From NCBI RefSeq assembly GCF_003334785.1, contig NZ_QOWV01000004.1: 64,000 bases of DNA. One strand, 5' to 3'. A program made the position numbers and the translations under genes. The notes under the pieces are model-generated. The model was not told where the DNA came from, did no database searches, and worked only from the letters and a program-made list of their open reading frames with translations. How positions within the stretch are numbered: position 1 is the first letter of the stretch; every line of letters begins with the position of its first letter. Of the stretch, positions 54,686-54,712 are shown in pieces. The stretch comes from Escherichia coli. GTDB lineage: Bacteria; Pseudomonadota; Gammaproteobacteria; Enterobacterales; Enterobacteriaceae.

Positions 54686-54712
54686 ATGTCGGCCCCGCTG
54701 CGGTTATCTTTA
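54686..54712 (-). promoter_or_regulatory. sigma-28 (FliA) class promoter for aer
   Basis: Minus strand reads TAAAGATA-N11-GCCGACAT against consensus TAAAGTTT-N11-GCCGATAA; -10 element about 50 bp upstream of the aer ATG. Confidence 0.6.

Follow-up and report, generated by a model that had tools for sequence, protein, structure and literature searches.

The stretch of Escherichia coli DNA analyzed here (64,000 nucleotides, hereafter called the window) carries the gene aer on its minus strand. RefSeq records that are 100% identical along this region annotate the ORF as aerotaxis sensor receptor Aer. Of 5426 complete E. coli genomes, 5422 contain the region, with the gene annotated as aer. The divergent neighbor of aer is the putrescine aminotransferase gene patA/ygjG. 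The longest ORF of patA/ygjG (54943..56433, +) comprises 496 amino acids, RefSeq places the start at 55054 (459 amino acids), and family models align only from about residue 35–45. With the start at 55054, the aer–patA intergenic region measures ∼417 bp instead of 306 bp.

The window is collinear with a K-12-like chromosome and, apart from a missing IS2 element, 99.97–99.99% identical to it. Along 41 kb that include aer, we counted 12 mismatches and two gap openings relative to a K-12-derived record. The IS2 element (L083 21656..22981) lies just upstream of a fimbrial usher gene, presumably yqiG, and is missing in the window at ∼22984..22992. The missing IS2, taken together with the high identity, indicates that the source is a close relative of K-12 and not K-12 itself. 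Elsewhere, the window features a tandem direct repeat of ∼358 bp (30104..30461 and 30481..30836, 90.8% identity), which corresponds, in the annotation of the K-12 record, to the duplicated Ibs type I toxin loci.

Layout of the aer upstream region

Read on the minus strand, the region in front of aer has the arrangement ...TAATCGGT TAAAGATA ACCGCAGCGGG GCCGACAT AAACTCTGAC..., in which two octamers flank a spacer of 11 nucleotides (Table 1). A preliminary description of the window had assigned these octamers to a promoter read by FliA (sigma-28), located ∼50 bp upstream of the aer ATG. Octamers, coordinates, spacing, and distance all proved correct, and we measured 49 nt between the −10 octamer and the ATG (54636). 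What had been overlooked is the required CRP site TGCGATCTAAATCAAA, which lies outside the coordinates given at that time. We first spotted this site as the second invariant block of a cross-species alignment. The distance from its center (54729.5) to the transcription start is 49.5 bp and thus equal to the position of −49.5 given by Hollands et al. in 2010 (PMC2859248).

Table 1. Elements of the aer promoter region in the window. The last two columns refer to the alignment of 19 upstream regions.
Feature	Position	Strand	Remarks and basis	Mean majority fraction	Invariant columns
CRP-cAMP site TGCGATCTAAATCAAA	54722..54737	-	8/10 matches to TGTGA-N6-TCACA; center 54729/54730 = −49.5		
CRP left half-site				0.97	4/5
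Sigma-28 −35 octamer TAAAGATA	54705..54712	-	−32..−25 in the numbering of Hollands et al.; point mutants and conservation	0.93	6/8
11-nt spacer ACCGCAGCGGG	54694..54704	-	length conserved, sequence free	0.63	1/11
Sigma-28 extended −10/−10 octamer GCCGACAT	54686..54693	-	−13..−6; part of the ChIP-seq motif TAAAGATAACCGCAGCGGGGCCGACATA	0.95	6/8
CGA core of the −10 octamer	54691..54689	-	triple mutant at the FliA-minus level		
aer transcription start (+1)	54680	-	published primer extension; allow ±1–2 nt		
aer 5′ leader, 44 nt including +1	54637..54679	-	AGGA Shine–Dalgarno sequence; conserved TTAACA block at 54669..54664		
aer CDS, 506 aa	53116..54636	-	PAS and methyl-accepting chemotaxis signaling domain; ORF, NCBIfam PAS/MCP hits		

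The mapped start falls on a C. Position 54680 is the only one in the window that combines the 6-bp offset from the −10 octamer with CGA at −11..−9 and a T at −32; the precision of the mapping is set by the size of the primer-extension product, which is approximate (∼148 nt). Within the leader, the TTAACA block (54664..54669, -) and the ATAACCTGCA.AGGA stretch that follows are kept in most of the 19 Enterobacteriaceae sequences, and the other leader sequence varies.

The −35 octamer is situated inside an inverted repeat with a 6-bp stem, CGGTTA-AAGA-TAACCG (54701..54716), which is flagged as terminator-like on the plus strand. We rejected this hairpin-like sequence (CGGTTAAAGATAACCG) as a candidate feature. 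It is absent in non-Escherichia relatives, a common G-to-A polymorphism at 54715 weakens it, and the count of such repeats is near chance. The terminator-like repeat is probably coincidental.

Match to the sigma-28 consensus and conservation

The aer site matches the consensus TAAAGTTT-N11-GCCGATAA at 12 of 16 positions, with two mismatches in each octamer. The −35 octamer retains TAAAG, including the conserved T and A as its first and third bases (6/8 matches), and the −10 octamer retains GCCGA (also 6/8). The octamers are spaced by exactly 11 nt, as in the consensus. When the window was searched with the unweighted consensus, the aer site was not recovered at up to three mismatches. At up to four mismatches with the 11-nt spacer, it is one among 6 sites, compared with ∼4.9 sites expected by chance (binomial, equal base frequencies). 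The unweighted match is therefore no better than chance, and the term “near-consensus” used in the preliminary description overstated the resemblance, all the more as the aer site is the sole one of 52 FliA sites with a C after CGA.

We then scored the window with leave-one-out weight matrices, built either from the 51 other FliA ChIP-seq sites (Fitzgerald 2014, Table 2) or from the 24 of them with FAT>4. With the full 28-column matrix, which includes the spacer, the aer site ranks 16th (51-site matrix) or 4th (FAT>4 matrix) in the window, and by leave-one-out score it is 47th among the 52 FliA sites. Because the spacer columns bring noise, the scoring was repeated without them, whereupon the site rose to 4th (51-site matrix) or 2nd (FAT>4 matrix) of 127,946 positions. 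With the spacer ignored, the 250 nt upstream of any single gene should contain, on the sense strand, 0.002–0.005 matches that are as good or better. Most of the matrix penalty on the aer site comes from the single base after CGA, which is C instead of T: the T of CGATA is present in 48 of the 52 FliA sites, three have A, and only aer has C. The aer site is thus significant in its context and not by sequence alone, by which it would be a candidate rather than a call.

Six further sigma-28-like matches in the window score at least as high as aer: 17650..17677 (+), 60468..60495 (+), 9140..9167 (-), 19424..19451 (+), 62385..62412 (-), and 1295..1322 (+). By position relative to the K-12 annotation, four of the six fall within genes, namely ygiC, ebgA (two matches), and parC, one shortly precedes ygiZ, and one covers the start of zupT. 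None of them appears in the list of 52 FliA ChIP-seq sites by Fitzgerald 2014 (PMC4183435). The absence of such high-scoring matches from the ChIP-seq list shows that FliA occupancy cannot be predicted from the sequence by itself.

To follow the site across species, representative genomes were scanned for Aer relatives, which yielded 80 loci; Salmonella is absent among them. Eighteen Enterobacteriaceae orthologues with 73–95% protein identity were aligned with the window to give 19 upstream regions from roughly ten named genera, unclassified isolates, and metagenome-assembled genomes (MAGs). The orthologues derive from Escherichia, Citrobacter, Enterobacter, Pseudescherichia, Phytobacter, Pluralibacter, Cedecea, Pseudocitrobacter, and unclassified isolates or MAGs. 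All 19 regions contain the sigma-28 motif, which ends 41–54 nt before the ATG. Invariant in all 19 are TAAAG..AA, GCCGA.A.A, and, in the CRP site, TG.GA.C....TC. No gap occurs between the CRP site and the −10 octamer in any of the 19 sequences. A CRP-like 16-mer (6–9 of 10 matches) is found at the same offset in every one of them, the first T of TGNGA and that of TAAAG being 25 nt apart. The alignment thus shows conserved octamers around a free spacer, as a bipartite protein-binding element should. The base after CGA is A in 15 of the 19 regions and C in four, and the consensus T is found in none.

The motif also shows a strand preference. When both strands of the same DNA are scored, the best sigma-28 score of the orthologues has a median of 17.5 for the sense and 1.5 for the antisense strand (Wilcoxon p = 1e-4). 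Sixteen of 18 orthologues score at least 13 on the sense strand, and none of the 18 does so on the antisense strand. For the 60 more distant homologues scored, the medians are 4.8 (sense) versus 0.6 (antisense; p = 2.5e-6), and 19 of the 60 score at least 13 on the sense strand versus none on the antisense strand.

The right arm of a perfect inverted repeat, ATCGCAA-A-TTGCGAT (54746..54732, -), overlaps with the CRP half-site on the upstream side. The left arm of this repeat is conserved in Escherichia, Citrobacter, and partly in Pluralibacter, and not in Enterobacter or Cedecea. The repeat was considered as a separate operator, but conservation of the left arm is limited to Escherichia, Citrobacter, and a few others, whereas the right arm is the CRP half-site. 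The repeat could be a site for a second protein or DNA that is contacted by the C-terminal domain of the alpha subunit. A reported link of PdhR to aer was sought in PMC7660256, where aer is absent as a gene name.

FliA and CRP at the aer promoter

The functional data on the aer promoter all come from K-12 and from two papers. The window represents a K-12-like strain, and its promoter region is identical to that of a K-12-like record (H12). Likewise, octamers, spacer, CRP site, and leader are identical to those of the same locus in E. coli K-12, with no promoter difference. The K-12 aer regulatory region is the subject of Hollands, Lee, Lloyd, and Busby (Mol Microbiol 2010, PMC2859248), whose Table 1 prints TAAAGATA-n11-GCCGACAT. 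In the FliA ChIP-seq data of Fitzgerald, Bonocora, and Wade (PLoS Genet 2014, PMC4183435), the 28-mer TAAAGATAACCGCAGCGGGGCCGACATA is a listed site with an FAT score of 21, the 16th of 52, and the 28-mer of the window agrees letter for letter with this MG1655 site in their Table 2.

Both experiments that the preliminary description had proposed are contained in the first of these papers. An aer::lacZ fusion, corresponding to the proposed reporter assay in fliA-plus and fliA-minus backgrounds, gave 223 Miller units in the presence of CRP and FliA, 53 without CRP, and 12 without FliA (PMC2859248). Primer extension, corresponding to the proposed mapping of the start site, gave a single product with +1 located 6 bp downstream of GCCGACAT, CGA at −11..−9, and T at −32 (PMC2859248), which fits the −10 element. 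Replacing CGA with GCT reduced activity to 12 Miller units, the level seen without FliA, and the −35 mutants T-32C, A-30T, and G-28A retained 23, 26, and 50 Miller units versus 223 (PMC2859248, Table 1). The −10 and −35 mutants thus keep between ∼5% and 22% of wild-type activity (12–50 versus 223; PMC2859248). In vitro, E-sigma28 transcribes and melts the promoter, with KMnO4 reactivity from −10 to +4, and E-sigma70 does neither (PMC2859248). The second paper reports a drop of aer RNA from 225 to 12 upon deletion of fliA and states that FliA transcribes aer without direct action of FlhDC, the older FlhDC assignment being indirect (PMC4183435). Published fliA, ChIP-seq, and in vitro data thereby bear out the earlier assignment of aer to a FliA promoter of the class 3 regulon.

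The same work established the part played by CRP. In cells whose FliA came from a CRP-independent promoter, expression was still about four-fold lower without CRP, so that CRP acts directly and irrespective of the FliA level (PMC2859248). Moving the CRP site to −41.5, −44.5, −54.5, or −61.5 abolished sigma-28-dependent activation (PMC2859248). In vitro, CRP is required at limiting polymerase, and this dependence drops as the polymerase concentration rises; the authors conclude that CRP recruits E-sigma28 (PMC2859248). The alpha C-terminal domains flank CRP on both sides, a layout unlike that of Class I and Class II sigma-70 promoters (PMC2859248). Activating region 1 of CRP is needed and probably contacts the alpha C-terminal domain, according to Hollands et al. 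2007 as cited in PMC2859248.

Taken together, we are practically certain that aer has a single promoter of the flagellar class 3 (late) type, which is read by FliA with direct help from CRP-cAMP bound at −49.5. No evidence contradicts a FliA/CRP promoter of aer, and the published tests that could have gone against its FliA part or its CRP part all turned out in its favor. One alternative, close to the wording of the preliminary description, is an autonomous near-consensus sigma-28 promoter, at which FliA alone suffices and CRP acts indirectly via flhDC and fliA. It draws on the in vitro observation that E-sigma28, at high polymerase concentration, needs no partner to melt the promoter and make the transcript, and on the 53 Miller units that are left without CRP compared with 12 without FliA (PMC2859248). 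However, an indirect effect via FliA does not account for the roughly four-fold drop upon CRP loss with CRP-independent FliA, nor does it account for the loss of sigma-28 activation when the CRP site is shifted by 5, 8, or 12 bp (PMC2859248). The match of only 12/16, with a C after CGA that is unique among 52 FliA sites, also speaks against autonomy, as does the retention of the CRP site and its spacing in 19 of 19 aer regions. An autonomous promoter was already refuted in vivo by the CRP-site displacements and the crp deletion of Hollands 2010, and we consider it very improbable.

Even less credible is a chance resemblance to sigma-28 elements, with aer in reality transcribed from a sigma-70 promoter or by FlhDC class 2 activation. 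The chance-level frequency of 12/16 matches (6 versus ∼4.9 expected in the window) would agree with it, as would a weak sigma-70-like site upstream (TGGGCA-18-TATAGT, 54822..54793) and an older study that, as cited in PMC4183435, called aer an FlhDC target. Yet sigma-70-like sites in the intergenic region number one, with 1.2 expected by chance, and only one primer-extension product was obtained, with neither transcript nor melting by E-sigma70 in vitro (PMC2859248). Transcription by FliA and not directly by FlhDC, together with the observed loss of aer RNA in the absence of fliA (PMC4183435), argues against FlhDC activation, and the conservation of the octamers around a free spacer in 19 sequences argues against coincidence. 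The chance, sigma-70, and FlhDC models are ruled out by the combination of one mapped start, selectivity for the sigma factor in vitro, and the pattern of conservation.

FliA is held by FlgM until the hook–basal body is complete. For the FliA- and CRP-dependent promoter, the retention of FliA by FlgM and the requirement of CRP for cAMP would together create an AND gate, with assembly state and cAMP level as its two inputs. Expression of aer would accordingly be on only when FliA has been released from FlgM upon completion of the hook–basal body and cAMP is high, that is, when carbon supply is poor. At the promoter itself, FliA polymerase needs TAAAGATA and GCCGACAT 11 bp apart, as published for this exact sequence, and CRP-cAMP, bound as a dimer to TGCGATCTAAATCAAA at −49.5, provides the direct help that the promoter needs. 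The polymerase melts the DNA from about −10 to +4 and starts at 54680, which gives the 44-nt leader. The core is probably sub-optimal, given its 12/16 match and the C in place of the conserved T after CGA, and CRP may be needed because these core elements are weak.

A structural framework is offered by the open complex of Pseudomonas aeruginosa sigma-28 (PMC12784957), which provides the structural basis for reading GCCGATAA, including an extended −10 GC and a flipped A. By analogy, sigma region 4 would read the −35 octamer of aer, the GC of GCCGA would represent the extended −10 element, and the A of CGA would flip out on melting. The two deviations of the aer −10 octamer (T to C and A to T) sit just downstream of this predicted flipped A.

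Related promoters and variation within E. coli

Among the promoters compared, trg is closest to aer. Both genes encode chemoreceptors, and in both upstream regions a CRP-like 16-mer is followed, with identical spacing, by a 9-nt linker and then by the −35 and −10 octamers on either side of an 11-nt spacer. The trg sequence reads TGTGACGCAAAGAGGT-TTTTGGTCA-TAAGTAAT-N11-GCCGATGA, and we confirmed the 16+9-nt offset. Whereas the −10 octamer of trg (GCCGATGA) has the consensus T, its −35 octamer (TAAGTAAT) and its downstream CRP half-site are poorer than those of aer. The trg promoter is the only other one with the aer arrangement and is sigma-28-dependent and CRP-activated (PMC2859248).

Canonical class 3 promoters are timed by the secretion of FlgM. 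Those of tar, fliC, flgM, motA, and tsr resemble the aer promoter in that they are used by the FliA holoenzyme via elements of the TAAAGTTT-N11-GCCGATAA type. In contrast to aer (matrix score 11.6), canonical class 3 promoters are nearer to consensus, with scores of ∼16–28. Clear CRP binding was not detected at tar, fliC/fliD, flgMN, flgKL, and motAB, and at tsr, CRP binds 132.5 bp upstream without direct effect (PMC2859248). The tsr −10 octamer (GCCGAAAAT) has a base other than T at the position discussed above, as do most aer orthologues. Class I (−61.5) and Class II (−41.5) sigma-70 promoters share CRP-cAMP as activator with aer, but the CRP site of aer is located at −49.5, a position from which CRP activates sigma-70 promoters only very weakly (PMC2859248).

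Within E. coli, 5289 of 5426 complete genomes contain the exact 31-mer that covers both octamers. The common one-base difference in the 71 bp around it is the G-to-A change at 54715, which lies outside the promoter elements. A C-to-T change at 54688 (−8), which converts GCCGACAT to GCCGATAT and restores the sigma-28 consensus, is found in 56 of the 5426 genomes; an A at this position is found in none of the 5426. Some other difference inside the 31-mer occurs in ∼77 of 5426 genomes, and the L001 spacer variant was not found in the E. coli genomes. Judged by strain names or sources, almost all of the 56 genomes with the C-to-T change are laboratory strains of the DH1/DH5alpha type. The carriers include DH1, DH5alpha, NEB 5-alpha, XL1-Blue, XL10-Gold, JM109, Stbl4, S17-1, ST18, ER1821R, and ER2683, as well as a TUM series labeled “Laboratory developed.” A few records bear other labels, including USML2 (source oil palm), K-12, MG1655, and TOP10. 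The change is probably a hitch-hiking mutation in the history of a laboratory lineage, and it is predicted from its return to consensus to strengthen the aer promoter.

One pig isolate, 20Ec-P-124, carries an insertion that separates the two parts of the promoter. An ISApl1 element (IS30-like; L082 1438..2507) lies directly upstream of GTTAAAG (window 54713/54714), leaving an intact CRP site and an intact sigma-28 core ∼1.07 kb apart. From the displacement experiments of Hollands 2010, this insertion is expected to deprive aer of its activation by CRP.

In view of the missing T after CGA in all 19 aer regions, the constant distance between CRP site and −35 octamer, and the near confinement of the T allele to cloning strains, the weak core of the aer promoter might have been selected rather than have arisen by drift, so that an ancient FliA-AND-CRP gate would have been maintained, and the laboratory T would act as a promoter-up mutation that loosens CRP dependence. 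We regard the chances for and against this proposal as evenly balanced.

The identification of the aer promoter is correct but already known, and both of the experiments discussed above have been published for the exact sequence. What we add is incremental: the geometry of CRP site, −35, and −10 octamer across genera, the persistence of a non-consensus base in the −10 octamer, and the near confinement of the consensus allele to cloning strains. These additions are relevant to promoter evolution and to the strength of sigma-28 promoters and leave the overall picture unchanged. The aer promoter is the founding example of an activator that acts on sigma-28 polymerase from an unusual position, and it ties aerotaxis, a form of energy taxis, to flagellar assembly and carbon status.
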